From Anaerohalosphaeraceae bacterium (lineage in GTDB: Bacteria; Planctomycetota; Phycisphaerae; Sedimentisphaerales; Anaerohalosphaeraceae): a stretch of DNA of 64,000 bases. The stretch lies in contig JBNRMN010000010.1 of assembly GCA_050309605.1 (NCBI GenBank), forward strand, positions 8,936 to 72,935, read 5' to 3'. Below are positions 11,064 through 64,000 of the stretch, in pieces; position 1 is the first letter of the stretch; every line of letters starts with the position of its first letter. The translations under genes and the position numbers were made by a program. Under the pieces are notes generated by a model. The model saw only the letters and a program-made list of their open reading frames with translations, was not told where the DNA came from and searched no databases.

Positions 11064-11078
11064 CATAAGGTTTTGCAG

Positions 11079-11108
11079 AGGGAAGCGTCGCCGCGGCGGC
11101 GCTTCCCT
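11079..11108 (+). terminator. GC-rich intergenic hairpin (RNA stabiliser or attenuator; no strong U-tract)
   Basis: AGGGAAGCGTCGCC-gc-GGCGGCGCTTCCCT. The single mismatch is a U.G wobble on the transcribed strand. Confidence 0.65.
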
Positions 11109-11133
11109 GATTGTTAAGAAGAAAGGGGGCGCT

Positions 11134-24372: not shown

Positions 24373-27300
24373 ATGAACAGGACGGTAGGTATTTTTCTGA
24401 GTATGTTAACGGTCTTGATTGTGTATGGCGGAACTGTTAAAGCGGCTTCGAATACCTCTCTACGGCTGACGGATAACTGGGAATTTGTACGCGGCGATTT
24501 GGGCGGCGTATGGGAGGCGCTTCGCAGCGACCGGTTAAGCAACAGCCTGCCGGTCTGGCAAAAAGTCTCTCTGCCGCATTGTTATAACGCTTTCGATTCG
24601 GTCGATCCGGATGGGCCCTATTATCAGGGACCGGCCTGGTATCGCACGCAATTAACAATTGACAACCCCTGGCCCGATGGACGCACGCTGCTTGTGTTTG
24701 AAGGCGCCGGCCAAAAGACCGAGGTCTATATTGACACCCAAAAAGTCGGCGATCATATCGGCGGATATGATGCCTTTACACTTGATATTACCGATGCCGT
24801 CAACACGTATCAACAATCGCCGCATTATCAACAGGCCTCCGCCGACCGATACATCCGTCCGGGCCTGATTCCGCTGACGGTACGCTGTGAGAACACCCGC
24901 GATCTGGAAATGATTCCGTCCGATCTGAGCGACTTCAATCTCTACGGCGGGCTGTATCGCCACGTTCACCTGGTCTATGAACCGGCGATCTCATTGGAAC
25001 AGATACACATCAAAACCGAACGACAGCCTTCGGACAATGAATGGCTCGTCAGCGTCGAAGGACGGGTGTACAATCCTCTGCGATTTAACAAGAAGACGAC
25101 GGCAACCGTTCGCCTCTTTGCTCCGGACGGTGAGCTGGTTTTTACGACGCAGACCGATGTTTCGTCTTTACAAAGCACCCAGATACTTGCCCGATCAAAA
25201 CTGATCGATCCGGCGCTATGGTCCACACAGAAGCCGCATCTGTATCGGTGTGAGGTCGTGCTGCAAAGCCCGCGCAGTCACTCCATCATCAACGAGCGAT
25301 TCGGTTTTCGCTGGTTTGAGTTTGCCGAAAAGGGACCTTTTTATCTGAATGGTGAGCGTCTGCTGCTTCGGGGGACTCATCGCCACGAAGATCATGCGGG
25401 TCTGGCCGCTGCAATGACGGACGACTTGATGGAAAAAGAAATCCGTCTGATGAAAGCCATGGGCGTCAACTTCCTCCGACTGGGGCACTATCCGCAGTCG
25501 CGTCATGTGCTGCATCTGTGCGACGAGCTGGGTATCCTCGTCTGGGAGGAAATTCCCTGGTGTCGCGGCGGTCTCGGCGGTGAGCGTTATCAACAGCAGG
25601 CGCGCGACATGCTGCGGGCGATGATCGATCAGCATCGCAACCATCCGTCTGTGATCATCTGGGGGCTGGGCAATGAGAACGACTGGCCCGGTGATTTTGA
25701 AACATTCGACCGGGAGCAGATACGCGGCTTTATGCGCGAGCTGCATGAACTGGCACACCGGTTGGATCCGCAGCGCAAAACCGCGATTCGGCGATGCGCC
25801 TTTTGCAGCGATATTGTGGATGTCTATTCGCCGTCCATCTGGGCGGGCTGGTATCGGGGTCGATTCATCGAATACAAAGACGTCTCCGAAAGCGAAATGC
25901 AGAAGGTCAATCATTTTCTGCATGTCGAATGGGGCGGCGACAGCCACGCAGGCCGACACGCCGAAAATCCGTATATTTATCTGGCGGACGTGGCCGCGAC
26001 CGGACAGGCCGACGAACGCGGCATGGATTTTATGATGACCGGCGGACAGGCCCGCGCCTCCCGCGACGGCGACTGGTCGGAAAGCTACATCTGCGATCTG
26101 ATTGATTGGCACCTGAAGGAGCAGGAAACGATGGACTGGCTGACGGGTACGGCGTTCTGGATCTTCAAGGATTTCTCCACGCCGCTGCGACCGGATAACC
26201 CGGTGCCGTTTATGAACCAAAAAGGCGCTGTCGAACGCGATCTGACGCCGAAAGAGGCGTATTACGTTTATCAATCCTACTGGACCGAGACGCCGATGGT
26301 CCATCTCTATGCCCATAACTGGCCGGTGCGGTGGGGGGCTTCGAACGAGCGCAAGACGGTTAAAGTCTATTCCAATTGTCCGAACGTTGAGCTGTTTGTC
26401 AACGGCCGATCCGCAGGCGTAAAACAGCGAAACAGTCAGGATTATCCCGCCGCCGGGCTGCGATGGTCGGTTGCTTTCCGAAGCGGGATGAACCATTTAC
26501 GAGCCGTCGCCCGAAAGGATGGGGTTAACGTGTCCGATGAGATCGTCTTTCGTTATGAAACGCGGCGCTGGGGGGACCCGGCGCGTTTGACGCTGAAGAT
26601 CGTTGACCGCTCGGATGATCATGCGGTAATTGAAACCACTTTGCTGGATGAAAATGGCGTCATCTGTCTGGACAGCCGTCAGTTCGTGCGATTGGGTCTG
26701 ACCGGCGACGGCACGTTGCTGGATAATCTCGGCACCTCCCGCGGTGCACGTAAGGTTCAGTTGTATAACGGCCGGGCGCAAATCAGTGTGCGTCTCAACG
26801 GCGGACAGTCTGTCGCCTCGGTATCCACCGACGGATGCCCAACGACGTTTCTGGAGATCGGTCCTGATCCGATGAACACGACATTGAAAGAGACGCCGCG
26901 AGCGGAACGGGCCTCGGCGGCGGCGCGCATAGACCGTGAACGTATCCTGAAATTGGCCGAATCCTATATGTCGATTGAACCGATTTCGTTGCGCGATTAT
27001 CCGGCTCCAGCCGATTATGTCGGCCCCGGCGACTTTTATTCGATGGGAGATTACTGGTGGCCCAATCCCGATACCGAAGACGGATTGCCTTATGTCCAGC
27101 GAGACGGCCAGTCCAATCCCGATAATTTTACCGAACATCGGATGGCGGTTCGGAGACTTCGCGATGCGGTTGCGGCGCTGGCGGCGGCGTATGCATTGGA
27201 CGGCAACGAGCGTTTTGCGCAGAAAGCGGTATCGTTGTTAAACACCTTTTTTGTGGATAAAGACAAACGGATGAATCCTCATTTGCTTTATGCGCAAGCG

Positions 27301-28041
27301 ATTCCCGGAAGAACCCAAGGACGCGGCATCGGGATTATCGACACACTGCATCTGGCGGAAGTGCCGCTGGCGATTGAGGCACTGAAAAACTCGGATGCGA
27401 TGACATTAGAAACTCTGGACGGCCTGAAACAGTGGTTTGCCGACTATGCCGATTGGATGACCACTCATCCGCAGGGCATTGATGAAATGAATACGGAGAA
27501 TAATCACGCTGTGGCCTATTTTGTTCAGGTGACAACCTTTGCCCGCTTGGTCGGCGACGAGGAAAAGCTGGAGTTGGCACGGCGCCGGCTTAAAGAGGTC
27601 ATTATGCCGTCTCAGATGGCGCAGGACGGCAGCTTCCCGCGCGAGCTGACCCGCACCAAACCCTACGGCTATTCCATATTCCAGTTGGACAATATGAGTC
27701 TGTTGTGTGAACTGCTTTCGACTGAGCAGGACAATCTCTGGGTATTCACACTTCCCGACGGACGAAATATGCAAAAAGCGATGGAATTATTATTTCCCTA
27801 TTTGAAGGACAAGTCGCAATGGCCGTATCGCGCGGACATTGAGCATTTCGAAGATTGGCCTGTTCGTCAGCCTTGCCTGCTTCTGGCCGGATACGCCTTC
27901 GGACGGCCGGATTATCTGTCGCTGTGGAAGACGCTGGATCCCGACCCGACGAATTTGGAAGTGCAGCGGAATATGGCGGTTACCCAGCCGCTGCTGTGGC
28001 TGCTCAGAGCCGAGGATGTACCGCTGCTGAAAGCCAACTAA
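24373..28041 (+). CDS. GH2 glycoside hydrolase fused to a C-terminal alginate-lyase-fold (PF05426, PL38-like) domain
   Basis: GH2: [44 protein letters not shown]. Lyase from about 26930: [42 protein letters not shown]. Confidence 0.88.
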
Positions 28042-46987: not shown

Positions 46988-48733
46988 TCATCTAAAGGTT
47001 AAGAAATGGACTGCATCAGGCAGCAATGGGCTATCATAATAGCTCAAATAAGGTTCATGTTGGTCGGATTTCGAAAAACGAATTTTCGAATCATAACCGG
47101 ACGAACGTACGCCGGTCCCCGTGATGCGCCCTGCCGGGGGCGGGGCGTTTGAGATGTATTTGACATGTTCTGAGTCGGAAACGGTATAGGGTCCGGCGCT
47201 GTCGTTGATCAGGGTATCCTCAAAGGTAACATTCTCGCAATATTTGACGGTACAGCCATTGCCGGCGTTGATGTGAACGTTCTTAAACACAACATCCTGA
47301 ATGCGGCTTTCGGGCAGCCCGGTACACTGAATGGCGGTTCTTACTCCGCCTTCTGACCGGATGTTCTCATAACGAATATTTCTGAATACAGGCGGTCTCG
47401 GCGCCGGTGTACCATCATTATTGACACTGTAATCCATTGTCAGTCGAATGCCGAGCCGCATTCGGGACAGGGTAATATCCCGAAACACAATGTTTTCCAC
47501 CGTCCCGCCGCGAACGACGTTGGATTTAATATCCAGACCTTCCCAGGAGATTCCGCTGATTGTGCAGTCGGAAACAAACACGTTTCTGACGCCGCCGGAC
47601 ATTTCACTTCCGATGACAATGCCCCCCATCGATCCATCAATCACATTATCGGTAATCCGGATGTCCGTTGATGGTCTGCCAACCTCATATCCAATCAGGT
47701 TTTTACCCGATTTTACGGCGATGGAATCGTCTCCCGTTTTGAAATAATTATCGAAAATATAGACATGGCTGGACGAATCAATGCCGATGCCGTCTCCGTT
47801 CCTGATCCGGTATTCCGGATTTCGGGAGATGACTTTTAACTGGCTGAATGTCAGCTTTTTGCTGTAAATCGCGTGGTTGGTCCAGCCCGGTCCATAACTG
47901 AGGGTCAGTCCATGGACATAGACATCTTCTGTGTTGATTAAGTGAATCAAACGTCCGCGAGATCGAATGCCCGCTTCACGTGCCTGAGCGCGGTCCAAAA
48001 CACCCCCTGACCCATCAATGGTTCCCTGTCCGATAATTTTTATGTTGAATACATTGGGCGGGCCGTGGGTATCACGCTGGCCGGCATTTAACAGGCTTGC
48101 AAAACACATCAAGTCCCATCCTTCAAAACGCGATTCAATAAAGGGTTTATAGTCGTCCAGATTGGTCGTGCCCTTGAGTGTGCCTCCCTCAGCGACGTTA
48201 AGCGTCATATTGCTTTTCAGAAACAACGCTCCGCTCAAAAAAGTGCCTTTCGGGATCAATACCGTTCCCCCTTCGGTGCAGGCGTCGATTGCCTTTTGGA
48301 TGGCTTGGGTATTGACGGTTTCCCCGTCGCCGACAGCACCGTATCGGGTAATATCGAATATCTCCCCCTTCGGTTCAGTTGTGACCTGTAGCGCATGACT
48401 CGCGGCAGAAAGTACGCCGCTTGTGTCTTTTGATTTTACTGTAAACGTATAGGAAGTGTCGGGTTCAAGCCCTGTCACATTGAAGCCGCCTTTGGTTGTT
48501 TCACCAATCAGCTTGCCATCCTGATAGATACAGTAACTGGAAAAGGATGCTTGAACCCAATTGTCCGGCTTGTCCCAGAGCAGCAGAATCATTGAATCCG
48601 TCACGGCCGCCGGCGGAGACATTAGGTTTTGAGGGGGAACAAGAGTGTCTGCATTGAGATTGCCCGCAATGACAGAACCAAGGATGGTTCCCGTTACTGC
48701 CAGTATGAGTAATGACGATTGTCTTTTCAGCAT
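46988..48733 (-). CDS. GH28 exo-poly-alpha-galacturonosidase-like enzyme with N-terminal FN3 domain
   Basis: FN3 (LLWDKP...GLEPDTSYTFTV), YGAVGDG..NTQAIQKAID, SGALFLKSN, NGDGI, GDDSIAVKSG, IGSEMSGG. ATG 48733 follows GGAAAGGA. Confidence 0.9.
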   Translation of the reverse strand: MLKRQSSLLILAVTGTILGSVIAGNLNADTLVPPQNLMSPPAAVTDSMILLLWDKPDNWVQASFSSYCIYQDGKLIGETTKGGFNVTGLEPDTSYTFTVKSKDTSGVLSAASHALQVTTEPKGEIFDITRYGAVGDGETVNTQAIQKAIDACTEGGTVLIPKGTFLSGALFLKSNMTLNVAEGGTLKGTTNLDDYKPFIESRFEGWDLMCFASLLNAGQRDTHGPPNVFNIKIIGQGTIDGSGGVLDRAQAREAGIRSRGRLIHLINTEDVYVHGLTLSYGPGWTNHAIYSKKLTFSQLKVISRNPEYRIRNGDGIGIDSSSHVYIFDNYFKTGDDSIAVKSGKNLIGYEVGRPSTDIRITDNVIDGSMGGIVIGSEMSGGVRNVFVSDCTISGISWEGLDIKSNVVRGGTVENIVFRDITLSRMRLGIRLTMDYSVNNDGTPAPRPPVFRNIRYENIRSEGGVRTAIQCTGLPESRIQDVVFKNVHINAGNGCTVKYCENVTFEDTLINDSAGPYTVSDSEHVKYISNAPPPAGRITGTGVRSSGYDSKIRFSKSDQHEPYLSYYDSPLLPDAVHFLTFR

Positions 48734-48773
48734 TGTAATCATCCTTTCCAAACAGTGTCGGTTTATTATTGAC

Positions 48774-48801
48774 TGTTCGCATAAAACGGGAATTTCTTTC
48801 A
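48774..48801 (-). promoter_or_regulatory. Putative ECF-type promoter TGAAAG-N16-CGAACA
   Basis: Near-identical -10 context to 664 (TTATGCGAAcAgtCAATAATAA versus TTATGCGAAtACAATAATAA). Confidence 0.65.
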
Positions 48802-49058
48802 ATAATTTTGAAGTTCGAATTAGTTTTTGACTCGCCCACGTCACAACAGGTGGATCGTCCGGACTTTTGCTTTCGGCTGAACGGCATCGGACGGCGTGCG
48901 GATACTGATTGTCTTAGATGAGGTGCGGTTTTATCTACATTAGTGTGTCCTTGGGTTTCTTGTGCCTGTTTCTCCAATATCAGAGGACATTATTGATGCC
49001 AAGAATCTGAACATTTTTCCTTCGGCTCACAAAAAAAGCGTGCAATTTCAGGAAATCC

Positions 49059-49125: not shown

Positions 49126-49662
49126 TTGGATAATCAAGAGAACACGAAATCATTGACCCTGAACTGGACCTCGGCACAGCCGACGGTCCTGGCGTATATC
49201 TCATCCATGGTGCCTAATTTTCAGGATGCTGAGGATATCCTGCAAACCGTTGCGTTGACCATTGCGGAAAAGTACGATACGTTTGACCCGTCTTGTTCCT
49301 TTCTTTCGTGGGCGCTGGGCATTGCACAAAATAAAATTTATGATTATTTCCGAAAACAGTCGAAACAGCGTAAAATTAAAATACTGGACACCCACACCGT
49401 AGCTCAAATCGCCGAGATTTTTGAAAAAGAAAGCTCTCATCTTAACGAGATGCGCTACGCATTGGAATTTTGTCTTGGCAAACTGTCAGGGCATTGGCGG
49501 CAGATTCTTGAATTGCGGTACATTCGGGAGTTGAGCACCCAGCGCATCGCCCAGCAGTTAGGGATGTCCAAAAACGCAATTTTCATCACCCTCCATCGTG
49601 TCCGCATAGCCTTGCAGGAGTGCATTCAAAAACGATTGTCCGCGGAGCGAAATCCTCTATGA
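49126..49662 (+). CDS. ECF sigma-70 factor (module 3)
   Basis: TTG start after GGAG; DAEDILQ...FLSWALGIAQNKI and LELRYIRE...LHRVRIALQECI. Close paralog of 3252. Confidence 0.92.
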   Translation: MDNQENTKSLTLNWTSAQPTVLAYISSMVPNFQDAEDILQTVALTIAEKYDTFDPSCSFLSWALGIAQNKIYDYFRKQSKQRKIKILDTHTVAQIAEIFEKESSHLNEMRYALEFCLGKLSGHWRQILELRYIRELSTQRIAQQLGMSKNAIFITLHRVRIALQECIQKRLSAERNPL

Positions 49663-51404
49663 GATACGATCCGGAAATTCTGTTAAGTCTTTACCTGAAC
49701 GACAACGAAGAAATGACAGACGAACAGTTTGAATGCCTTCGGTCATGGATTAACGCATCCGAGGCGCATGCTCTTCAATTTGTTCGCGCCTCTTATATGC
49801 ATCGATTGGTTCATGACCATATGACGGGAAATGATTTGCAGAAGCGCTTTATGATGCCTGTCGAGCAGCAGGATGCAGAGTATCGACGCAAAGACGGGTA
49901 TTGTGAAGCAGCATTTTGGGACGCCCTCTCACAGCACGAAAAAGTTGCCGAAACGCTGGTGCTGCCGAATGAGTCGTCTGAACAGCAGAAAGAATTGATT
50001 TCCGATGTTCGCCGGCGCAAAGCCATGCTGAAAACCGGACAAAAAAAAATCCCTTTCAGTCTATGGCTGTCGCTGGGTTCTTTGGCGGCCTTGTTTATGA
50101 TGGTGGCGTATGTCATGCTCAATCCCCGCGTTGCCGAGCCGATCGCAACACTGACAGACAGCCATCAGGCCCAATGGCAGTGGAAGTCGCTGGAAATCGG
50201 CGCGCGATTGACCAACGCACAGTATCCGATATCGCTGCTTTCCGGCTATGCAAAATTGCAGTTTGATAACGGGGCGGATGTCATTCTTGAAGGTCCCGTC
50301 GAATTTCAGCTTGTCAGCGCCGAACAAATGCGTGTTTCCCACGGTAAACTGACAGCCGTCGTTCCTCCCTCGGCGTCCGGCTTTCGTGTGGATGCTCCGG
50401 AGATGAGCATCATTGACTTGGGGACCGAATTTTCGGTCGGCATCGACCGGAACGGCTTTTCGGCGGTCCACTTGTACGAGGGCAGCGCTTCGCTCCAGGT
50501 CGGCGAGGTCGGCAATCGCAAAACCAGCCATTTACTAACCGCCGGACAAGCTCGACGAGTGGAGGCCGCCACTGGACGGATTGAGGTGATTCCGCTGGAG
50601 CAGAACACATTTGTCCGACGTCTTGATTCTGAAAAACAGTTTCTCTGGCGGGGTGAATCGGTTGATCTGGCCGCGATTGTGGCAGGAGGAGACGGGTTCA
50701 GCCCGGTCCGCGGAATCGCCGGCATTAATCCCAAAACCGGTCAGCCGGTTACGGGATACAGGTTTACAGTTCACTATTCGACGGCGACGTACCGCCCTGT
50801 TCCCGACAATCCCTTTGTGGACGGCGTGTTTATTCCGGACGGCGGGCTGGGGGAGACGATCATTTCCTCAGCCGGTCATATTTTTAAGGATTGCCCCGAT
50901 ACCGCCGGCAGAAGTGACAATCCCGTCGGAGCGACCAGTCACGATATTTTGACTTTTTGCGATTATGATGAGGATGTGATTCCCGAAGCGCGGCGAAATA
51001 AAATGGCCGTCTTCAATGGAGTTGCCAGGGGGACCGTCGAGGAGCCGGCGGTTTTGATGCACAGCAATGTAGGGATTACGTTTGATTTGCAAGCCATACG
51101 AAGCCGGCTGTCGGGAGCCGAAATCAGCCAGTTTGACTGCTTCATTGGGTTGCCGGGAAGTTTGAGAGGTGCAACGTCCCGGTCGGATGTGTGGGTATTG
51201 ATAGATGGACAGCTCAGATACAGTAAACACGAATTGATGCCCGAAGCCGGGTTGCTGGACATAACGATGGATCTGGCCGCTTCAGATCGGTTCCTGACGA
51301 TTGCCGTGACAGATGCCGCCCACACCTATGAGCCGGGCGAAGGAACATATGCCGATGATTATGTCTATCTGGTCAATCCGAAACTGGTCTTAAAGGGGCG
51401 TTAA
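49659..51404 (+). CDS. FecR-family anti-sigma factor with C-terminal NPCBM-like domain (module 3)
   Basis: ATGA overlap with the sigma gene; TM segment LWLSLGSLAALFMMVAYVML; ILEGP, IIDLGTEFSV; MHSNVGITFDL...VLIDG...DRFLTIAVTD. Confidence 0.88.
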   Translation: MRYDPEILLSLYLNDNEEMTDEQFECLRSWINASEAHALQFVRASYMHRLVHDHMTGNDLQKRFMMPVEQQDAEYRRKDGYCEAAFWDALSQHEKVAETLVLPNESSEQQKELISDVRRRKAMLKTGQKKIPFSLWLSLGSLAALFMMVAYVMLNPRVAEPIATLTDSHQAQWQWKSLEIGARLTNAQYPISLLSGYAKLQFDNGADVILEGPVEFQLVSAEQMRVSHGKLTAVVPPSASGFRVDAPEMSIIDLGTEFSVGIDRNGFSAVHLYEGSASLQVGEVGNRKTSHLLTAGQARRVEAATGRIEVIPLEQNTFVRRLDSEKQFLWRGESVDLAAIVAGGDGFSPVRGIAGINPKTGQPVTGYRFTVHYSTATYRPVPDNPFVDGVFIPDGGLGETIISSAGHIFKDCPDTAGRSDNPVGATSHDILTFCDYDEDVIPEARRNKMAVFNGVARGTVEEPAVLMHSNVGITFDLQAIRSRLSGAEISQFDCFIGLPGSLRGATSRSDVWVLIDGQLRYSKHELMPEAGLLDITMDLAASDRFLTIAVTDAAHTYEPGEGTYADDYVYLVNPKLVLKGR

Positions 51405-51469: not shown

Positions 51470-53497
51470 ATGAAAAAGTTGTTGGTGTTAAGTATGATGT
51501 GGGCAGCGTGCTTATCTGCTGTCTCTGCGGCGGTGATTGTTAATGTCGAGCGTACCAACGGGTATGGGCCGGACAATCGAGCTCCAATCGGCGCGTATGA
51601 ACCGGACACGCCGCCGCTGCCGTGGCCGGAAGGGGGTCTGCAGACCGGAGTCAGCAGAGCGTTAACCCCTTATGTGTATTCAGATCGGACGTTTTGGTGG
51701 AACAACGTACCCGACGAGATGGTCGGTTGGGAACACGTTCGTACCTTTAATAATGACAAAGAGCCGGAAGCAGCCGATGTGAAGTACACGGTGACGACAT
51801 CTAAAGCCGCTGCCATTTGGATTGCGTTTGAAAGTCGTCTTGCCACCAGTACAGATTACTGGCGTCCGCTCGAGGAGCCCATCACTCCGTGGGGGCAAAA
51901 CGCTCCTGAGTCGCCTCAGGTTTTAGTGGATTGGCTGACGCGCCATGTAGGCCCGCCCGGCACATTTACTGATACGGGTATGACCGTAAACGTTCAAGAG
52001 GGCGATCCCGGTACGACACGGACGTTTTTAGTCTATTCTGCGCAACTTCCTGCCGGTTCGTATGAGTTTACCTGGCAAGCCAATCGAAACATAAGTAATT
52101 ACATCATAGGGTCCGCTCCTCCGCCGAGCAAGGCCTGGGGTCCGAATCCGTATGACGGCGAGGAGCTGGTGGAAATTGAAAGGGTACTGTCCTGGGAAGC
52201 TCCGGAAGATCCGAACCTGACGATCTACGGCTATGATCTCTATCTGGATCCCAACGAAACCAAAGTCACAGCCGGCGACCCGACGGTTTTGAAGGCCGAA
52301 GGCTTGACGGAAACCAGCTACCCAGCCGATTTGCTGTATGACACGCAGTTCTTCTGGAGAGTGGATGTCGCGGGTTTGTATGACGATGACCCGAATCAGA
52401 TGACGGTGGTCAACCAGGGACCGGTCTGGCGTTTCTCGACGGCCCCCGAGGCGCCTGTGATCGTGACCCAGCCGGTCGGACAGTCGCGCGGCCCCGCTGC
52501 CGGCAGACCGGACGCCCTGCTCGCGGTTGAAGCCACCAATGCGACCGATTATCAGTGGTATAAGGACGGCGTCGAGATTCCGGGGGCCACCGAAGCGACC
52601 CTGTCGATTCCCGGCGTTACGCTCGAAGACGAAGGATTGTATTACTGCGTTGCGTCCAATGCCATCGATGCGGTGGTGTCGGATGAGGTGTGGCTGGAGT
52701 ATGCCCGTCTGACCAGTCATTGGACCTTTGATGACACGTATGGGGATGCCGTTGGCGGATATGACATCATACCGGCCGCTGAACCGAACGCTCCGACGTT
52801 TGCAGAGGGCAAAATCGGTAATGCCCTTGCACTTGACGGGATCAGCCAGTTTGCACGTATTCCGGCTGAAGCGCTGCCGAAGAATCAGCACGCTTTGACG
52901 ATTGCGTTCTGGGCCAGAAATGATATCGGTACGGCCTCTGCAACGACGGCCTTTTACGCCAATACGATTGAAGAACCGGGCAATCGCCTGATCAGTGCGC
53001 AGATTCCGTTTACCAATGGCAATGCTCAGTTTGATCTCGGCAATGCCGACAGCGGAGGAGGCTATGATCGTGCCAGTGCCTCTATGCGGCCCGCGGACGA
53101 TTGGGTATTCTGGGTAATTTCCAAAGATGTCGAAACCGGCGCTATGACGGTCTATCAGAACGGTTCTGAACTGGGTCGGAATGCCAATGCACAACGGCTG
53201 TTTTACGGCGTTGAAGAGTTCTTCGTCGGTGCCAGGAATTTTGATGACGGACTGGGACAGTTTTTCGGCGGAGCGATAGACGATCTGAAAATCTACAACT
53301 ATGCCCTGGATCCGGTCGAAATCGCCTATCAGTATCATGACGTAACCGGCGATCCGGTATGTGTCAATCCGGACGATCCGGTCCTTCAGCAGTTTGATTA
53401 CGACGGCAATTGTATCGTGGACATTGGCGATCTGGCGGTCTTTGCATCGAATTGGCTCTCCTGCCAGAGAGTGCCCGACTGTTTTGAGCGTCCGTGA
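51470..53497 (+). CDS. Secreted [novel ~190-aa domain] - FN3-like - Ig - LamG protein with Cys/EF-hand tail (module 3)
   Basis: GGAGG RBS and signal peptide; FFWRVD; YQWYKDG...LYYCVASN; FGGAIDDLKIYNYAL; FDYDGNCIVDIGDL...PDCFERP. Confidence 0.85.
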   Translation: MKKLLVLSMMWAACLSAVSAAVIVNVERTNGYGPDNRAPIGAYEPDTPPLPWPEGGLQTGVSRALTPYVYSDRTFWWNNVPDEMVGWEHVRTFNNDKEPEAADVKYTVTTSKAAAIWIAFESRLATSTDYWRPLEEPITPWGQNAPESPQVLVDWLTRHVGPPGTFTDTGMTVNVQEGDPGTTRTFLVYSAQLPAGSYEFTWQANRNISNYIIGSAPPPSKAWGPNPYDGEELVEIERVLSWEAPEDPNLTIYGYDLYLDPNETKVTAGDPTVLKAEGLTETSYPADLLYDTQFFWRVDVAGLYDDDPNQMTVVNQGPVWRFSTAPEAPVIVTQPVGQSRGPAAGRPDALLAVEATNATDYQWYKDGVEIPGATEATLSIPGVTLEDEGLYYCVASNAIDAVVSDEVWLEYARLTSHWTFDDTYGDAVGGYDIIPAAEPNAPTFAEGKIGNALALDGISQFARIPAEALPKNQHALTIAFWARNDIGTASATTAFYANTIEEPGNRLISAQIPFTNGNAQFDLGNADSGGGYDRASASMRPADDWVFWVISKDVETGAMTVYQNGSELGRNANAQRLFYGVEEFFVGARNFDDGLGQFFGGAIDDLKIYNYALDPVEIAYQYHDVTGDPVCVNPDDPVLQQFDYDGNCIVDIGDLAVFASNWLSCQRVPDCFERP

Positions 53498-53535
53498 TTA
53501 AATTGTATAGAGTGTTGAAATTGTCAATCGTACTG

Positions 53536-53564
53536 ATCCGGGGTCCGCTCGGCGGACTCCGGAT
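53536..53564 (+). terminator. 13-bp hairpin between the LamG scaffold and prepilin genes (module 3)
   Basis: ATCCGGGGTCCGC-tcg-GCGGACTCCGGAT with a G.U wobble on the + strand. Confidence 0.65.
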
Positions 53565-53633
53565 ATATGTCTATAATGTAAAAGCGGCGCCAATGACGGC
53601 CGTCGATCAAAATGACCATAATGGAGAATACGT

Positions 53634-54422
53634 ATGAAACAGACAGGATTGTGCAAGAAAGGATTTACGCTGATCGAATTACTGGTGGTCATTGCCATTA
53701 TCGCACTGCTGATGTCGATCGTAACCCCGGCAATGCGAAAGGCCAAAGAGTATGCCCGAAAGATCATGTGTCAGTCCAACTACAAACAGTTGGGCCTTGC
53801 ACTCGGCTCGTACGAGGCTCACACAGGTTATAATTTCCGAAATTACAATTCCGCCGCTGATGTAGATGACTTGTCGCGCCACTGGTTCTGGTATAACGGT
53901 ACCGGCGACTATGCTCACGAAGCGTCGCCCTACGCCATCCGGCATTTGCGAAATTCCGGCGTGCTGCCTTCCTCTGAGGTTCTGTTTTGTCCGGGCGTCA
54001 GGAACCTGTCGTTTGATCAAAACTATCCGGCCAGCAAAGTGGTTGCGGGGGATTATGCGCCTCAGAACACAGATAATATCTATGCAAGCGTGGAAAACGG
54101 CGCGTTGCCTTCAAACGACAGACCGTTGTTTTGGAGTACTCATACATGGATTTGGAAAAAAGAGATTCGGGGAGATGTCGTCTCGGTCAATAATATGTCT
54201 TCCGGTGCGATGATGTGCGATATGACCGAAGGCAGTTGGCAATTCGCTGCGGAGACCAATTCTACATTTCGAAATTTCTTTAATGCCGTCGGCGTTTCCC
54301 GGATGTTTCAGCACTGCAATGTTTTAATGAACGATATGAGTGTCAAGAATCCGACCGATAAGGATGAAGAATTGGTTCAATGGCTGTGGAATTCAGATCG
54401 CTGGGCCGGATCGGGATATTAA
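53634..54422 (+). CDS. Prepilin-type N-terminal cleavage/methylation protein (module 3), degenerate C-terminal motif
   Basis: [34 protein letters not shown] and LFCPG. The C-terminal region reads [11 protein letters not shown] instead of H-X9-DG. Confidence 0.9.
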
Positions 54423-54567
54423 CGGTATTCTGTGTGGGATAAACCATCCGCGGTTTTGGGAATGTATGGAATGTCGGCGATAGGGATTTCGTACCGAGTT
54501 TGGAAGCCGGCATACTTGTCGCCGGTCATCTATCTGACAACGTTATTGTTTGGGATATTGTTGAATT

Positions 54568-56385
54568 ATGCTTTGTATGACTCGCAAGAATCCAATCGTG
54601 TGGGTAACGTATTGTATTATCCTGGTTATGTCTTTGGACACGGCGGCAAAATCAGCCCAGCCGCAGCCGTTGTCCGCCGCGCAGTCTGTTCGCGGGTGGA
54701 TGCTGCTGTCCAACCGAGTGGACGACGGCCTGCGCGTTATTGAACGGGCGAAAGATTACGACATCAACCACCTCCAATTGTCTCACCATATCATTCATGA
54801 TTTACGTCATGTGCGCGACGAAAGCCGGCTTGCACGGGTCCACCGACTGACGGAAGCGGCGCATCAGGCCGGTATTCAGGAAGTCGTGCTTTGGGATCGC
54901 ACGCTCTATTCGCTCAGCTACTACCCTGATGAGTTTCGATCCGGCCCGAACAATACGATTGACTTGGACAATCCGGCGTTCTGGGAATGGTTTAAGAACG
55001 ATTATCGGGACATGCTCGACAAAGTTCCGGATATTCAGGGACTGATTCTGACCTTTATTGAAACCGGTGCACGGGTCGAGCGCCAGCATTCCGACCAGCT
55101 CAAAACCGCTGCGGAAAAGCTCGCCGCGGCTGTCAACGCCGTGGCGGATGTGGTCATCGGCGAACGCGGCTTGAATCTGTATGCCCGCACGTTTGCTTAT
55201 GACCATCAGGAATACGAACGGATCACCGGCGCCATTGAGCTGTTCAAATATGATCAGATTCGGTTAATGATGAAAGAATCGCCGCATGATTTTCTGCTGC
55301 TCCATCCGCAGGACTTCTATGCGGGTAAATTCGATCGTCCCACCCTGATGGAGTATGACGCCGCCGGCGAATTCAATGGCCAGGGGATTATCCTCAACAC
55401 CTGGCCGCAGTATATTCTCGACCGCGCCAGAGATTACCTTCAGCGCGATCATATCGTCGGCTATGTCGCCCGAACCGATCGTTATGGAACGACCCGCATC
55501 ATCGACCGTCCGTCGGAAATCAATCTCTGGGCGCTGAAGTGTGTGCATGAAACATGTGATGTAACAGTCGATGAGGTTTATCAACAGTTCATCAGTCAGC
55601 GCTATACGCCCGAGGTCGTCCCTTATCTGCAGGCGGCGTTTTCGAATGCTTTTGAGATCGTCACGGGCGTGCTCTACACGCTGGGGACCAGCACGGCCAA
55701 TCACTCTCAACTTGACTATGACCCGTATAATTCACACTGGGCGCGGCATGTGTCGGGCAAATGGCTGACCCCGCCCATCGCCCGGATCGGTCACGGCGTC
55801 AACAAGGAATTCCACTACTGGCGCGATGTGATCAACACGCTGGCGCCCGTGTGGGCCAAAGCCGGCGGTACCCAGCTTGGAGAGATTCCCTGGGTCGTTG
55901 AAAAAGGCTGGCTGGATCAGGAAAACGATCTGATGAACGAACACTATCTGCGTGATATCCTGACGCAACGCGATTACGCCATTGATTTGATTCGTCAATC
56001 GCTTCAGCATCTCGAAGATGCCCGGCCATGGCTTTCGAAGACCGATTTTTCGGACCTTTATCATCACCTGAAGCATACGCTGCTGACCGCCCGGCTGCAT
56101 CGCGCCGTCAGCGCGGCCTATTGGGGATTTCGCGTCTATGCCCGCGGCCCGGAGCATCGCAGTTCTTACGTGATGGCCGAAACCCGCAGGGGACTGCTTG
56201 ATATTGAACGTGTGGCGGCAGAGATTGAAGCTTATCCGGTTAGACCGCCGTCGGGCCAATGGAACTGGAACCGGGATGCGGATGCCGCACGCCGCTACTA
56301 TCGCTGGATTGTCGAAGAAGGCTGGCCGGAACAAACACGCGGACGCAGAAATCCCTATGGCGGGATGAAATTTCCACTGGAATGA
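54568..56385 (+). CDS. Secreted hypothetical protein, possibly a TIM-barrel glycoside hydrolase of unassigned family
   Basis: 605-aa ORF with a signal-like N-terminus and alternating beta/alpha pattern (VVLWD, GLILTFIE, LYARTF, LMMKE, LMEYDAAGEFNGQG). Located in a CAZyme run. Confidence 0.6.
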   Translation: MLCMTRKNPIVWVTYCIILVMSLDTAAKSAQPQPLSAAQSVRGWMLLSNRVDDGLRVIERAKDYDINHLQLSHHIIHDLRHVRDESRLARVHRLTEAAHQAGIQEVVLWDRTLYSLSYYPDEFRSGPNNTIDLDNPAFWEWFKNDYRDMLDKVPDIQGLILTFIETGARVERQHSDQLKTAAEKLAAAVNAVADVVIGERGLNLYARTFAYDHQEYERITGAIELFKYDQIRLMMKESPHDFLLLHPQDFYAGKFDRPTLMEYDAAGEFNGQGIILNTWPQYILDRARDYLQRDHIVGYVARTDRYGTTRIIDRPSEINLWALKCVHETCDVTVDEVYQQFISQRYTPEVVPYLQAAFSNAFEIVTGVLYTLGTSTANHSQLDYDPYNSHWARHVSGKWLTPPIARIGHGVNKEFHYWRDVINTLAPVWAKAGGTQLGEIPWVVEKGWLDQENDLMNEHYLRDILTQRDYAIDLIRQSLQHLEDARPWLSKTDFSDLYHHLKHTLLTARLHRAVSAAYWGFRVYARGPEHRSSYVMAETRRGLLDIERVAAEIEAYPVRPPSGQWNWNRDADAARRYYRWIVEEGWPEQTRGRRNPYGGMKFPLE

Positions 56386-56479
56386 TTGTATGCATTATAT
56401 TATGTCGTCATTAACGGCGCAAATACGGCTTCGCCGTAAATAAACAGACTCGTTCATTCGCGATCAAAAAACTGTTCTT

Positions 56480-58795
56480 ATGGGGGTAACGATTATGATG
56501 GCGCAGGCGTTTTTTACCAAAACACAACGATATGAAAGGGTGCATGCAGGCTTATTCTTGTTTATGACGGTGTTGTTTGCGATAAGCACTTATGCGCCGG
56601 GGGCGATAATCACCCAAGTTGCCCGCACCAATGGTCAACCCGGTGAACGAGACCCTATCGGCGCCTACGACGGCGACACGCCCCCGCTGCCGATGCCGGA
56701 CGGCGGCCTAAAAGAAGGGGATTTAATCTATTCGGATCGAACATTTTGGTGGGTCAACCTACCACAGTCGCTGCTCGGTTCGGACTATATTCGTGTGTTC
56801 AATAACGACAAGGCGACCGATGAGATCGATGTGACCTATACCGTGACGACTTCGGCGTCGGCGACCGTTTGGGTGGCGATTGACACGCGCGCCGCCGATT
56901 CGTCCAACTGGGGCGAAACCTGTCCCTGGGGAGCGGCGGCGCCCGGTTCGCTGCAGCCGGTCGTGGATTGGATCACGTCCGAGTTTGCGGAAGCGGGGAC
57001 GTTTCGGGATACCGGCCTGACGGTGGGCATTCGCGAGAGTGCTTCTACCCTGCGCACTGCCGGAGTGTTTTCAGCGGTGCTTGAGGCCGGGACGTATGTC
57101 TTTGGTGCGATGCCGAACAACAGTATCTGTATGTACACGATTGGCGCTATTCCTGCGATCCATTCACGGGTCATACTGTCCGCCGACGGACCAGGCAATA
57201 CCTATGAGCTGATTGCAAGTGTTTTGGGGGGCAATCCGATGGAAGTGCCCGATTGCGGCCATCCGGAATTCGGCAGGCATATTACCGAGCAGTGGGATGA
57301 CGAGTTGGGCAAATATGTTTTTGTTTTTCACATCCACGTTGAAGAGGATGACGACCGTTGTGTAAATTTTGATCGCCAGCGCAACGAGATCAAAACCTAT
57401 GGTCCTTCGCCTGAGTACGTCAAGGGAAGATACAACGACATTCATACGTATCGATGGAAATTCAAGCTGGATGAGGGGTTCCAGCCCTCTCCGAATTTCA
57501 CCCACATTTTTCAGATCAAAGCCGGCGACGGTTCCGACAGCGGCGCACCGATTATTACCATAACTCCCCGGTATGGCAGCCCCCAGAGGATGCAGCTTAT
57601 CTTTACCCCCTCAAGCGGTACCGGCGGCGGCGGCACAAAGACCAGTCCGTTGTTGGATCCGTTTAAGGGCGAATGGATCGAAGCCTATGTCAGGGCGCTG
57701 TACGCGGAAAACGGCGCTATTGAAGTTGTTCTCACACGGATTCGAGACGGCGCCGTGCTGATGTCCTATACCCATGACAATCTCGATATGTGGCGCGACA
57801 ACGCCACATTCAATCGGCCCAAGTGGGGCATCTACCGCAGTCTGAACAGTCCGCAGTACCTCCGAGACGAACAAGTGCGTTTTGCCGACTTTTGCATTGC
57901 CAAAGGCGATGACATTTGTCCGAGTGATGTTCCGACGTATTGTCCGACGGGACTGACCGCCGTACCTGATACCGAACAAGTCAAGCTGAGCTGGATAGCG
58001 GACCCCAAAGCCTCCCGCTATAATGTAAAACGTGCTGCCCAAAGCGGCGGACCGTATGCGATCATTGCCGCCGGCGTAACAGCTACAGAGTTTACCGATA
58101 CTGAAGTGCGCAACGGGACGACTTATTACTATGTGGTTTCTTCGGTCGGTCCTTCCGGAGAAACGGGGACTTCCAATGAAGTGCGCACGATACCCCGTTT
58201 GACGTTTTTTTTTGAAGCTGAAGAGGTTATGCGTTCCGCGGTCGGTGCCGGCACGTCGCTTCAAAGCGATTCGCAAAACAGCGGCGGCATCTGGGTTGCA
58301 CTGGAGGCCGCCGGTGCCGGCCCGTCTATTGCATATCTCCTGCCGAGTATCCCGGCCGGGACGTATTTGTTGAAAATGGGATATAAAGGCCATCCGAATC
58401 GCGGTATCCTTCAGGCCGCCGTTAACGGGGTGCTTGTCGGTGAGCCGCTGGATCAGTATTTTTTTCCTTCGAGTTATCCCGAACACACGTTCGGCAATGT
58501 GATGTTCGCTTCCGGAGGCGATCAAATGATCCGGCTGACCGTCATCGGCAAAAATCCGTCAGCCGGAGCGTACACATTGTCATCTGACACATTTAAGCTG
58601 ATACGCTTGAATCATTCGGTCGATCTGGACGGCGATGGTCGGGTGGATTATGCAGATTTTGCGATGTTGAGTGCTCAATGGCTGACGGATGGCACATTGG
58701 TTCCGTCCGCCGATATGGCCCCCGACAGCGGAGACGGCTTGGTGAATTTGGCCGACCTGATTAAGCTCTGTGAAGAATGGCTGATGGTGTATTAA
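56480..58795 (+). CDS. Secreted [novel ~190-aa domain] + jelly-roll polysaccharide-lyase-like domain + FN3 + CBM-like + dockerin-like tail
   Basis: DRQRNEIK, YRWKFKL, FTHIFQIK and RPKWGIYR resemble jelly-roll lyase motifs (R-x-E, QI, KxGxY). FN3 YNVKR...TYYYVVS; FEAE CBM-like domain; DLDGDGRVDYADF...GDGLVNLADL. Confidence 0.75.
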   Translation: MGVTIMMAQAFFTKTQRYERVHAGLFLFMTVLFAISTYAPGAIITQVARTNGQPGERDPIGAYDGDTPPLPMPDGGLKEGDLIYSDRTFWWVNLPQSLLGSDYIRVFNNDKATDEIDVTYTVTTSASATVWVAIDTRAADSSNWGETCPWGAAAPGSLQPVVDWITSEFAEAGTFRDTGLTVGIRESASTLRTAGVFSAVLEAGTYVFGAMPNNSICMYTIGAIPAIHSRVILSADGPGNTYELIASVLGGNPMEVPDCGHPEFGRHITEQWDDELGKYVFVFHIHVEEDDDRCVNFDRQRNEIKTYGPSPEYVKGRYNDIHTYRWKFKLDEGFQPSPNFTHIFQIKAGDGSDSGAPIITITPRYGSPQRMQLIFTPSSGTGGGGTKTSPLLDPFKGEWIEAYVRALYAENGAIEVVLTRIRDGAVLMSYTHDNLDMWRDNATFNRPKWGIYRSLNSPQYLRDEQVRFADFCIAKGDDICPSDVPTYCPTGLTAVPDTEQVKLSWIADPKASRYNVKRAAQSGGPYAIIAAGVTATEFTDTEVRNGTTYYYVVSSVGPSGETGTSNEVRTIPRLTFFFEAEEVMRSAVGAGTSLQSDSQNSGGIWVALEAAGAGPSIAYLLPSIPAGTYLLKMGYKGHPNRGILQAAVNGVLVGEPLDQYFFPSSYPEHTFGNVMFASGGDQMIRLTVIGKNPSAGAYTLSSDTFKLIRLNHSVDLDGDGRVDYADFAMLSAQWLTDGTLVPSADMAPDSGDGLVNLADLIKLCEEWLMVY

Positions 58796-58812
58796 AATGG
58801 GGCGGATTTAAG

Positions 58813-61800
58813 ATGAAATTACGATTATTTTGTCTGCTGTTATTGATGGCCGGCGCCGCTGTACCGGCAGCGGTGATAACCCAGGTCGAGCGCGCCAACG
58901 GGGCGTCAGGCGACAAACCTCCCATCGGCAAGTTTGGTCCGAGTACGTCCCCGCTGCCATGGCCGGAAGGGGGATTGCAGACCGGTATTAGCAGGGCATT
59001 AACTCCTTATGTGCACTCGGATCGGACCTTTTGGTGGAATAATGTGCCCGAAGAAATGATCGGCTGGGAACATGTCCGTACTTTCAATGACGACAAAGAA
59101 CCTGATGCACTCAATGTAACGTACACGATGACCACGTCCGCCGCGGCGACCATTTGGATTGCGTTTGACGATCGCCTTGTCACGTCCACCCAATGGCTTC
59201 CGACCGATGCCCCCCTCACGCCGTGGGGCGATGGGACTCCGGAATCGAGACAGACGCTGGTGGATTGGCTGACGCGATTCATTGCACCGACCGGAACGTT
59301 TACCGATACCGGTCTGACGCTGAATGTCCAGGAAGGCGACCCCGGTACGACGCGTACGTATGAGGTATTTTCCGCTGTACTTCCCGCCGGTTCGTATATT
59401 TTCGCAAGCCAGGCTAATCGCAACATCAGCAATTATGTCATGGGCGCGGTCCCGTTACCGCTCGCGAATGAAGACTTCAGGGCCTTTAACGATTGCATAC
59501 GAGCAGACGATGATCAAACGGCGGATAACGTCACCAACTGGACGGTTTATAATGGGTTTACCTCGACTATGTCAGGTCCGCTGATCGATTTTGAAACCGG
59601 TCGGCAAACCCCTGTTACGGCAACCTTTACATGGGATTCATCCAAAGGGCTGGCCGTCAGCGAAACCAGCGGCTCAGAGGACGGCGTCAGCCAGCCCCGA
59701 CCGGGGACGCCGGCGTATGAGATTTTTGGAGATATTGTCGATTTTTCAGATCGAATCATTTATTACGGCAGCGCCGGATGGTGGGTGGAAGTGTCGTTTA
59801 CAGGGCTTGACCCCGAAAAAAAATACACCTTTGCCACCACGGCGATTCGCGCAAAACATTATACAGACCGCTTGACGCTGTTTACCTTGACGGGGCACAC
59901 AAGTGCTGTCAATAACAGTTCCGATGGAATTTACTTGAAAGATGACGACCGGACGGTATTGGTGGCAGGCGGGAATCATCTCGATACAACAGGATATGTG
60001 GTCCGGTGGGACGATATTCGCGTCCCCGACCGGGGAGACGGAACCGGTCAGTTTTCAGTTCGCGCCGAGGCCTATGGCGCCAATTATCGAGCTTATCCTT
60101 TTGGCGGATTTATGCTTGAACAGGTCAGGAATTCGCCTCCGACTGTCAACGCCGGCGATGATCAGACGATTTATCGTCCCTTGTCCTATTTGACGCTGGA
60201 CGGGACGGTCACTGATGACGGACATGGTGTTCCGAATGGTTTTCTCAAGAGTACATGGTCGCAACTATCCGGGCCGGCATCGGTGTCATTTGTCGGCGAT
60301 ATTCATCAGCCTCAAGTGATGGCGCATTTTCCGGAAACAGGGGTTTATCGGCTTCAGCTCTCGGCGACGGACGGTGAATTGTCGGCCTCGCAAGAGGTCA
60401 CAATCACTGTAGAACCGCCTCTATGTCCGGTTGGTGATCTGGACGGGGATTGTAAGGTAACGCCGGCCGACTTGGTCTTGCTGGCGACCGGATGGTTGGA
60501 TGACGGCATCTGGCCGGCAGCGGATTTGACGGGAAATTGGCGCGTGGATATGGAGGAATTGAGTCTTGTAGCGCAAAGCTGGCAGGACGACTGGACAGGC
60601 GCGCTTCAGGTAACGATCAGTCCGGCCGAAGCGCTTTGGGCCGGCGCCCGCTGGAAACTGAATGATGGACCGTGGCGGTCGTCGGGAGAGGTGGTTGAAT
60701 CGCTGGCAGAGGGGACATATCGTGTGGACTATGCGGTCACGCCGCCATGGGTGCGTCCGGATGCGCAGGATATTGAAATACGGCGCCAGGAGACCGCTTC
60801 TGTATCGGCCGAGTATGTGATTCCCACGCAGACACTGGCCATCAGCGAATTTATGGCGGTCAATTCAAATGTCGGCAATTTGCGTCCGACGGTGTCGCTG
60901 GACTTATCGACCGTTATTGACGGCGTGCCGGTATATGAAGATTGGATTGAATTGCAGAATTTAACGGATGAGGCAATAAGTCTTGAGGGATGGTATTTAA
61001 CGGACAATGCCGACAATCTGACCAAGTGGCGATTTCCGCAGGGATACAGTATTGAGCCAAGAGGGTGCTTGGTGGTGTACGCGTCCAGAAAGGAACCCGA
61101 AAAATACGGCTATCCGTTTGTGGACGATCAGGGTCATCTGCATACCAACTTCGCCTTGGCGCGGGAAGGTGAATATCTGGCGCTGGTGCGTCCCGACGGC
61201 GAATCCATTGAACATACCTATGGTATTTTTCCGGAGCAGCGGGGTTTGGTATCATACGGCGTCGGCTCGGACGGGTGCGTCGGTTATCTGACAAGTGTGA
61301 CGCGCGGCACGGCAAACACGGGGATTTACGACGGTATTGCAGCCGATCCGTCATTCAGCGCCGCGCGCGGTTTTTATGAGGAGCCGTTCACGGTGTATCT
61401 TACATGCGCGACGCCGGATGCACAGATTCGTTATACGACGGATACCTCGGAGCCGACGGCCGAGAAGGGCAGGTTGTATGACCCGGTCAATCCAATTCCG
61501 ATTACGACAACCACAACTCTGCGGGCTGCGGCATACAAAGACGGACACCTGCAATCCAATACCGTGACCCAAACTTATGTTTTTTTGGATGATGTGCTTG
61601 TACAGGCGACCGATCCGGACACCGGTGCACAGGGGGTTCCGGAAGGCTATCCGACGACGTGGCCGGGCGGGTCCTATAGCGGTGCGATTGCCGGCGATTA
61701 CCAGATGGATCCTGATATTGCCTCACCGACGGGACAATTCGGCCATTTGTACGCAGCAACACTGAAAAATGACTTGCAAGCCGTTCCGTCAATGTCAGTG

Positions 61801-64000
61801 GTGGTGCCGCTTGAGCATTTCTTTTCAATTCCGGCGGGAATTTATCCCAACCAGTCGCAGGACGGCACCGAACGGGCCGGGTCGGTCGAATTTATCGACC
61901 CGCTGACGGGCGAAAGTTTTCATACCAATTGTGCTGTCAGGATGCAGGGCGGCGTCGGAAGCGGCGGAACATCACTGCATCGCTGGAAGTATGACAAATT
62001 GTCGATGCGACTGCGATTTCGCGGCATGTACGGCGGTTCGCTGGCATATCCGGTCTTTGGCCCGACAGGGGCGGACAGTTTCGACAACTTGGTGCTCAAC
62101 GCCCGTTCGAACAATACATGGTTGCATCCGGACCAGATACAGCGCATCAGGGGGGATTATGTGCGCGAGCAGGTCGCATCGGACCTGCAGCTTGCAATGG
62201 GCGGATACGCTCCTCGCGGACGTCCCGTACATGTCTATCTGAACGGGATGTACTGGGGGTTGTATTGGCTTCAGGAGCGGCCGGATCATGCTTTTGCGGC
62301 CTCGTATCTGGGCGGCCAGAAGGACGATTATGACGTGATCAAACACGGTCTCGGCGATGTGGTCAGCGGAAGCGACAGGGAGTATATTGCCTTGTTCAAT
62401 ATCTCTGCCGCCTCGCCGGACCCTGTGACGGCGTTTGAAAATCTCAATCAAAAACTCGATGTGACGGACTTCATTGATTATCTCATTGCAAATTATTATC
62501 TCGGTAACACGGATTGGGACAACAAGAACTGGTATGCCTCATTCAACCGATTTGATCCGCAGGGGCGATGGCGATGGCATATGTGGGATGCCGAGCATGT
62601 TATCGCCGCTCCTGAAGCGGATGTAACGGGCAAAAACAACAGTATGGCGCCAACGGGGCTGCATCGCCGATGGATCGCCAATACGGAATACCGTACCCTG
62701 TTCGGCGACCGCGTGCATAAGCATTTTTTCAACGACGGACTATTGACGCCGACGGCGTTTGCGGCGCTGTTTGCGAATGTGGCCGAGCAAATCGACCGGG
62801 CCATCGTGGGCGAATCGGCCCGATGGGGCGATAACCGTCGGCCTGAGCTGCCTTATACACGTGACGCCGATTGGCTTGCCGAATGCAATCGAATCCTGAA
62901 TGACATTATCCCCGGTCGCAGAGATGTGGTTCTCAGCCAGTTTAACGCGAAGAATCCATCTTGGTATCCGACGGTTGCCGCACCGGTCTTTTACATCAAC
63001 AGTGCTTATCAACACGGCGGTGATGTATCAAAGAATGATGCTCTGGCGATGCTCAATCCGAACGCATCGGGAACGGTGTATTATACGCTGGAGGGTACCG
63101 ATCCGCGACTGCCCGGCGGAGGCGTTCATTCTTCGGCGACAGCCTACACCGGTGCGCTGGCCGTCACAGCGCGAACCGTTCCGGTCAAGGCTCGTGTGCT
63201 GAGCAATGGCGTATGGAGTGCCATGAACGAGGCGATCTTTACCCTTGGCCCTCCGGCGCTGCTGCATTACTGGCATTTTAACAACCTGCCGGATCCGACG
63301 ATAGCATCCGCGGCGGCTGATTATACGATTTTGGGCGATGCCCTGATTATTTATCCCGGCGACGGTGATGGCTATATGGATACCGCCGACGGTTCGGACA
63401 TCAATATCCGGCTGGGTCAGGACGCCGGCAGGAGCCTGCGCGTCCGCAACCCCTCCGATACACGGCAATTGCTTTTGACATTGCCGACCACCGGCTATGA
63501 GGCCGTCCAGCTCAGTTACGCCGTGCGGCGAACGACCAGCGGTGCGCAGACTCAAATCGTTGAATATCGCACCGAAATCGGCGGTTCCTGGCAATACTTT
63601 GATCAAATCACCGTGCCCGATGAGTACACCCTGTTTACGTTTGATTTTTCAGCGATACCGCAAGCCGACAACAATCCGGAGTTTGCGGTACGCATTCTGT
63701 TCAGCGGCGAGGCGGCCTCCGGCACATCCGGCAACAACCGCTTTGACAATATCGTCCTGGACGGCGTGCCGCTGGCCGGGACCAATCAGCCGCCGCAGTT
63801 GACCGCGCCGCTGCCGTTTACCGAGGCGATTGAGGACGCGCCCGTTCAGATTGACTTGTCGGCTTATTTTACTGATCCGGACGGCGACGTGTTAAGCTTT
63901 ATCGCTGAAGCGGACAAGCCCTTCGTCCTGGAACCGACGGTCGCCGGTGACATTCTGACCCTGACGCCGCTGTATCGAGGCGAATCGGTCATTACGATCA
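58813..64000 (+). CDS. Very large secreted multidomain CotH kinase-like protein (novel domain + PKD/Ig + dockerin-like + lamin-tail + CotH), runs off the window
   Basis: Absent from the ORF track because there is no stop in the window. Manual translation from ATG 58813: MKLRLFCLLLLMAGAAVPAAVITQVERANG...; NSPPTVNAGDDQ; CPVGDLDGDCKV; LAISEFMAVN..DWIELQN; VHVYLNGMYWGLYWLQERPD; GNTDWD; WDAE; GESARWGD. Confidence 0.85.
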   Translation, partial: MKLRLFCLLLLMAGAAVPAAVITQVERANGASGDKPPIGKFGPSTSPLPWPEGGLQTGISRALTPYVHSDRTFWWNNVPEEMIGWEHVRTFNDDKEPDALNVTYTMTTSAAATIWIAFDDRLVTSTQWLPTDAPLTPWGDGTPESRQTLVDWLTRFIAPTGTFTDTGLTLNVQEGDPGTTRTYEVFSAVLPAGSYIFASQANRNISNYVMGAVPLPLANEDFRAFNDCIRADDDQTADNVTNWTVYNGFTSTMSGPLIDFETGRQTPVTATFTWDSSKGLAVSETSGSEDGVSQPRPGTPAYEIFGDIVDFSDRIIYYGSAGWWVEVSFTGLDPEKKYTFATTAIRAKHYTDRLTLFTLTGHTSAVNNSSDGIYLKDDDRTVLVAGGNHLDTTGYVVRWDDIRVPDRGDGTGQFSVRAEAYGANYRAYPFGGFMLEQVRNSPPTVNAGDDQTIYRPLSYLTLDGTVTDDGHGVPNGFLKSTWSQLSGPASVSFVGDIHQPQVMAHFPETGVYRLQLSATDGELSASQEVTITVEPPLCPVGDLDGDCKVTPADLVLLATGWLDDGIWPAADLTGNWRVDMEELSLVAQSWQDDWTGALQVTISPAEALWAGARWKLNDGPWRSSGEVVESLAEGTYRVDYAVTPPWVRPDAQDIEIRRQETASVSAEYVIPTQTLAISEFMAVNSNVGNLRPTVSLDLSTVIDGVPVYEDWIELQNLTDEAISLEGWYLTDNADNLTKWRFPQGYSIEPRGCLVVYASRKEPEKYGYPFVDDQGHLHTNFALAREGEYLALVRPDGESIEHTYGIFPEQRGLVSYGVGSDGCVGYLTSVTRGTANTGIYDGIAADPSFSAARGFYEEPFTVYLTCATPDAQIRYTTDTSEPTAEKGRLYDPVNPIPITTTTTLRAAAYKDGHLQSNTVTQTYVFLDDVLVQATDPDTGAQGVPEGYPTTWPGGSYSGAIAGDYQMDPDIASPTGQFGHLYAATLKNDLQAVPSMSVVVPLEHFFSIPAGIYPNQSQDGTERAGSVEFIDPLTGESFHTNCAVRMQGGVGSGGTSLHRWKYDKLSMRLRFRGMYGGSLAYPVFGPTGADSFDNLVLNARSNNTWLHPDQIQRIRGDYVREQVASDLQLAMGGYAPRGRPVHVYLNGMYWGLYWLQERPDHAFAASYLGGQKDDYDVIKHGLGDVVSGSDREYIALFNISAASPDPVTAFENLNQKLDVTDFIDYLIANYYLGNTDWDNKNWYASFNRFDPQGRWRWHMWDAEHVIAAPEADVTGKNNSMAPTGLHRRWIANTEYRTLFGDRVHKHFFNDGLLTPTAFAALFANVAEQIDRAIVGESARWGDNRRPELPYTRDADWLAECNRILNDIIPGRRDVVLSQFNAKNPSWYPTVAAPVFYINSAYQHGGDVSKNDALAMLNPNASGTVYYTLEGTDPRLPGGGVHSSATAYTGALAVTARTVPVKARVLSNGVWSAMNEAIFTLGPPALLHYWHFNNLPDPTIASAAADYTILGDALIIYPGDGDGYMDTADGSDINIRLGQDAGRSLRVRNPSDTRQLLLTLPTTGYEAVQLSYAVRRTTSGAQTQIVEYRTEIGGSWQYFDQITVPDEYTLFTFDFSAIPQADNNPEFAVRILFSGEAASGTSGNNRFDNIVLDGVPLAGTNQPPQLTAPLPFTEAIEDAPVQIDLSAYFTDPDGDVLSFIAEADKPFVLEPTVAGDILTLTPLYRGESVITI

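Follow-up and report, generated by a model that had tools for sequence, protein, structure and literature searches.

An unnamed, CBM-like domain repeated on scaffold, lyase-like and CotH-family proteins of an anaerobic planctomycete

Three copies of one domain in a gene module

We analysed a 64,000-nucleotide stretch of the 73-kb contig JBNRMN010000010.1 from an Anaerohalosphaeraceae bacterium (hereafter the window), in which one gene module (module 3) encodes three proteins with related N-terminal regions. An earlier note on this DNA had proposed that a scaffold, a lyase and a CotH protein have a single N-terminal domain in common, and all three copies were indeed recovered, 47-71% identical to each other with E values below 1e-50:

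51530..52120, forward strand: copy A, 197 aa (residues 21-217 of open reading frame (ORF) 51470), N-terminal on an Ig/LamG scaffold
56603..57157, forward strand: copy B, 185 aa, N-terminal on the PF14099 lyase-like protein of ORF 56480
58870..59454, forward strand: copy C, 195 aa, N-terminal on a PKD/LTD/CotH protein

Each copy starts right behind a hydrophobic N-terminus or signal region, the ORF of copy C being read from 58813 (an alternative in-frame ATG at 58777 overlaps the upstream stop). Comparison by tblastn within the window yielded identities of 70.6% for A-C (E 7e-91), 46.9% for A-B (E 6e-51) and 47.7% for B-C (E 7e-56), and the next match in the window reached only E 0.19. The motifs quoted earlier agree with this alignment, and the host labels hold by Pfam domain content, with PF14099 scoring 31.1 bits against a cutoff of 29.9 and the CotH label denoting family membership only. 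The ratio of nonsynonymous to synonymous substitution rates (dN/dS, NG86) was 0.19 for A-C, 0.35 for A-B and 0.26 for B-C, and different codons are used at 64 of the 139 residues identical between A and C. The copies are under purifying selection, as had been supposed for A and C.

On contig C60 of the same genome (G000), a PEP-CTERM protein has a fourth close copy (D, 65% identical to A) as its entire cargo; the protein displays a signal peptide, a C-terminal PEP motif, a membrane helix and a basic tail (TIGR02595, 22.5 bits; cutoff 16). Over these four copies dN/dS ranges from 0.19 to 0.35 and dS from 1.15 to 1.73. A distant fifth copy (family profile E 2.6e-14) forms the N-terminus of a scaffold on contig C6, within an ECF/FecR/prepilin locus that also carries PL10, GH88/105, a sodium symporter and two pectate lyases. 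The congeneric genome G435 holds the same four close copies, and A-D group with two near orthologues in one clade (SH-aLRT 98) of a quick tree with 71 rows, drawn from P0003-P0060 and the five copies of G000. Between the two genomes, synonymous differences affect 50 of 197 codons in the scaffold domain versus 49 of 423 in the remainder of the gene (p 3e-5); this excess is patchy (window 51530-52120 versus L087:2232-2822) and was not seen for copies B and C. One block of the G435 scaffold domain is also nearer the PEP-CTERM copy (85-86%) than to its own orthologue (75%), which, along with the patchy excess, suggests segment exchange. The four close copies probably stem from local duplication and appear to exchange segments.

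A domain family and its solved relatives

A profile of the three copies retrieved 448 cluster representatives at E 0.001, and 160 at 1e-10, among 1.84 billion; the best 150 of the 448 were analysed in detail. A full copy is present in 146 of them and two to five copies in 45, whereas 16 are stand-alone PEP-CTERM proteins, and single copies without a PEP tail lie at the N-terminus in 33 and at the C-terminus in 31. Among genomes of the order, a broader profile detected the domain in 60 of 201; the narrow one was positive in 11 of 301 genomes of the phylum. No Pfam or NCBIfam model covers it. The earlier description as unannotated stands for these databases, although homologous domains already figure in the solved structures 6HPD and 6HZE.

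The family core spans ~140 aa, to which copy A adds clade-specific inserts; those of the window copies lie near positions 15-36 and 105-129. Residues were counted over 230 homologous copies, with P0001 and P0002 excluded as near-copies of the genes studied here. This census did not bear out the idea of a Trp-rich domain: the median is 2 Trp per copy, and the 6-9 Trp of the window copies are a feature of the local clade. Among the nine of copy A, W57 (80/230) and W135 (143/230) are common, W32, W56, W67, W121 and W182 occur in 0-3 copies each, and most are private. A family-wide conserved Trp, as in the Trp platforms of type A or B carbohydrate-binding modules (CBMs), was thus not found. What is conserved is a polar set comprising D52, R53, N74, D76, K/R77, D101, R103 and Y191, with all eight residues in 158 of the 230 copies and at least seven in 217, and acidic and basic residues alternating.

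The structure of copy A, predicted with high confidence (predicted local distance difference test (pLDDT) 92.1; predicted template-modelling score 0.89), is a beta-sandwich. Profile similarity to the group formed by the 6HPD C-terminal domain and GH138 domain 4 is significant (E 3.8e-14; probability 93.9, E 1.6e-7), and the predicted fold is the same over the whole domain. The first relative is the C-terminal domain (849-988) of a glycoside hydrolase (GH) family 2 beta-glucuronidase, PDB 6HPD, which we take to be P17_GH2 of the Formosa agariphila ulvan locus; it lacks R53, K77, R103 and the inserts, and occurs as a single tail on one enzyme. The second is domain 4 (732-871) of the GH138 alpha-galacturonidase BPa0997 (PDB 6HZE/6HZF/6HZG), a fixed part of one enzyme family with 8% structural identity and without the N-D-K motif. 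The domain is repeated, modular and mobile, and homologous to the C-terminal domains of 6HPD and 6HZE. A match to a characterised family with a non-glycan function was looked for, and none was found.

Hosts of the family include scaffolds with LamG, PA14, CBM9, PKD or malectin domains, beta-helix proteins (PL9-like and others), GH2, GH138, GH28 and BNR proteins, SASA and GDSL esterases and a sulfatase. In three FecR-like proteins and two Ser/Thr kinases, the domain comes last, past a predicted membrane segment. An address specific to module 3, as the earlier note would have it, is not supported: besides its spread over the order, the same genome bears it on the PEP-CTERM protein and the pectin-locus scaffold, and peptidases, cytochromes and kinases carry it elsewhere. 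What is local is the A-D clade. Of 52 PEP-CTERM ORFs detected by pattern in the genome, some of them spurious, eight, on six contigs, have cargo in common with non-anchored, secreted neighbours, so that reuse of one domain across a locus is the local grammar. These cargo-sharing genes lie on contigs C15, C52, C53, C64, C85 and C87 and exemplify the general layout of such loci.

A putative glycan-binding pocket and the alternatives

The domain resembles beta-sandwich CBMs (CBM32, CBM27, NPCBM and kin) in its size and all-beta core, in sitting terminally or in tandem on secreted carbohydrate-active enzymes (CAZymes), and in serving as the distal domain of anti-sigma factors; NPCBM occupies the corresponding place in two anti-sigma-position proteins of the window. 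It is a discrete, contiguous and, as its pLDDT and its stand-alone and tandem forms indicate, independently folding module, and it is attached to CAZymes (the PF14099 lyase, GH2, GH138, GH28, PL9-like proteins, esterases and a sulfatase). It is a real, unnamed family, CBM-like in context and a candidate CBM with putative glycan binding. The layout further recalls known Phycisphaerae loci with ECF sigma, FecR-like, prepilin, scaffold and PEP-CTERM genes, in which one passenger domain is carried by both anchor and scaffold. Unlike in those, the PEP-CTERM copy here is on another contig, between a repeated insertion sequence end (L001:1-115) and an integrase (L001:2391-3665). The same insertion sequence end recurs at the ends of 11 other contigs, and the G435 counterpart of this copy comes after a gene that is GH28-like by eye (no Pfam match at 1e-4).

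We lean towards a mobile, predicted beta-sandwich that putatively acts as a lectin-like binder of a short and perhaps acidic glycan through one polar pocket, co-locating its host proteins on the substrate. Strand order, rather than coordinates, places D52/R53, N74/D76/K77, D101/R103 and Y191 together, and we infer that they form a single pocket at the loop end of the sandwich. Recognition by this pocket would rely on hydrogen bonds and salt bridges to sugar hydroxyls, and possibly to a uronate carboxylate, instead of Trp stacking. The copies on the scaffold, the lyase-like enzyme and the CotH-family protein would hold all three to the same extracellular sugar chain, the PEP-CTERM copy might capture the same ligand at the cell surface, and the FecR and kinase fusions could use the domain as a sensor. 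Weighing against a purely glycan-binding role, hosts also include peptidases (M14, S8) as well as CAP, thioredoxin and cytochrome c proteins.

These non-CAZyme hosts would suit a structural accessory domain, a spacer or stabiliser without a specific ligand whose Asp/Arg/Lys/Asn set builds an internal network of salt bridges or Ca2+. The most deeply conserved residues, those retained in 6HPD, are acidic or amide (D52, N74, D76, D101), and the acidic/basic alternation is of the kind seen in ion pairs. However, one would not expect a spacer to make up the only cargo of PEP-CTERM proteins (16 of 150) or to take the distal position in anti-sigma factors and kinases, and we hold this explanation unlikely.

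The common clade of A-D and the two near orthologues, the membrane anchoring of one copy and the patchy exchange, as co-adapted partners might show, could also reflect protein docking. Copies would then bind each other or a common partner, and the PEP-CTERM copy would anchor the scaffold, lyase and CotH protein in a cohesin-dockerin manner. Anchor-plus-scaffold reuse nevertheless occurs with unrelated domains at the eight other PEP-CTERM genes, and ligand binding is the better fit for tandem arrays and for the single tails of GH2 and GH138, which renders docking improbable.

We give even less credit to the prepilin of the module as the binding partner, that is, to a domain tying scaffolds to a pilus-like fibre. 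Of 29 prepilin-like ORFs, a single one is closely paralogous to this pilin (76%); it belongs to the C6 locus, the sole further pilin module with the domain. Within the fetched stretch, the domain was found at 21 of 34 loci of the pilin subfamily. Yet it is absent from the other 13, several of which have other scaffolds; most of the 21 positives are one orthologous pectin locus and hence not independent; the window and C6 domains are only ~20% identical; and the pilin subfamily occurs in 30 of the 201 genomes of the order as against 60 for the domain. The association is better read as shared history or shared substrate than as obligate binding. At one G435 locus, a C6-type anti-sigma gene is accompanied by a pilin with 91% identity to that of the window (window 53634-54422; L002:3388-4293; L088:1-834), which suggests pilin exchange between the two modules.

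A small cryptic enzyme with lyase-, epimerase- or esterase-like activity on an acidic sugar, the Asp/Arg/Lys/Tyr set being its active site, is similarly improbable. Near-invariance of the eight residues over 230 copies and stand-alone surface forms would fit a catalyst, but arrays of up to five copies and sensor positions would be uncommon for one, and the set is only partly preserved in 6HPD and GH138.

Module genes, substrate leads and further observations

The genes of module 3 and the divergent gene upstream are as follows:

46988..48844, reverse strand: fn3-GH28 gene, divergently transcribed, upstream of the module
49126..49662, forward strand: ECF sigma factor
49620..51404, forward strand: FecR-like anti-sigma factor with one predicted membrane segment
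51470..53497, forward strand: secreted scaffold, 675 aa, with signal peptide, the domain, Ig and LamG
53634..54422, forward strand: prepilin with an N-methyl motif and a weak DUF1559 match, sharing 76% identity with the pilin of the C6 pectin locus
54568..56385, forward strand: unclassified probable glycoside hydrolase, TIM barrel plus helical domain
56480..58795, forward strand: secreted protein, 771 aa, with the domain, a PF14099 polysaccharide-lyase-like region and a weak dockerin-like tail
58813..64000, forward strand: CotH-family multidomain protein of at least 1729 aa, truncated by the contig end, in the order domain, PKD, LTD, Fn3-associated, CotH (kinase activity putative)

The predicted structure of the 54568 protein is near GH84, GH67, GH20 and GH138 folds, with a remote GH67 sequence match (E 0.007). 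Its relatives number at least 800 matches among 7997 scored candidates, the best 120 being 53-96% identical; named ones are labelled hypothetical or SGNH fusion, and fusions to GH28, SGNH or papain domains occur in some members. We regard the family as a candidate new glycoside hydrolase family.

Together with GH28 and the PF14099 lyase domain, this protein makes the module neighbours lean to uronic acids, and both solved relatives are uronidase tails. Conversely, the three basic residues are absent from 6HPD, and of 20 other loci just 2 showed clear uronate genes in a scan that covered 104 of 116 neighbours at E 1e-15. Uronate specificity is accordingly only a lead, a separate and weaker step that we take as tentative, and the family may cover several ligands. 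Somewhat more doubtful still is the fullest proposal, a new CBM family for uronate oligosaccharides whose one pocket would serve four roles: enzyme targeting (GH2, GH138, lyases), PEP-CTERM surface capture, scaffold display and transmembrane sensing (FecR-like proteins, Ser/Thr kinases). Such a domain would confer specificity on a SusC/D-independent, pilin-associated glycan-capture system of Phycisphaerae, and segment exchange would keep its copies within a locus alike.

If glycan binding is true, a small domain that folds well would lend its name to a family with at least 448 cluster representatives, assign a function to the tail domains of two enzyme structures and serve to probe what is sensed and captured by the ECF/FecR/prepilin loci of anaerobic planctomycetes. 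New CBM families turn up regularly, so such a finding would bring more utility than surprise, unless a common ligand served both the sensor and the surface-capture roles.

A CotH gene (LTD/CotH) adjoins a domain-bearing scaffold in 4 of the 20 other loci (L151, L155, L157, L158), and in P0276, another CotH protein, the domain is likewise N-terminal. In the window CotH protein, the ~230 aa between the domain and PKD (window 59455-60150) have no Pfam match; a related stretch sits only further downstream in the proteins of C33:25828-30066 and C89. Elsewhere in the window, three LamG/Ig scaffolds lie in tandem at 6676-13332, the N-terminal domains of two of them without a firm Pfam match (one weakly GH131-like), and the gene at 24373-28041 encodes a GH2 fused to a C-terminal PF05426 alginate-lyase domain.
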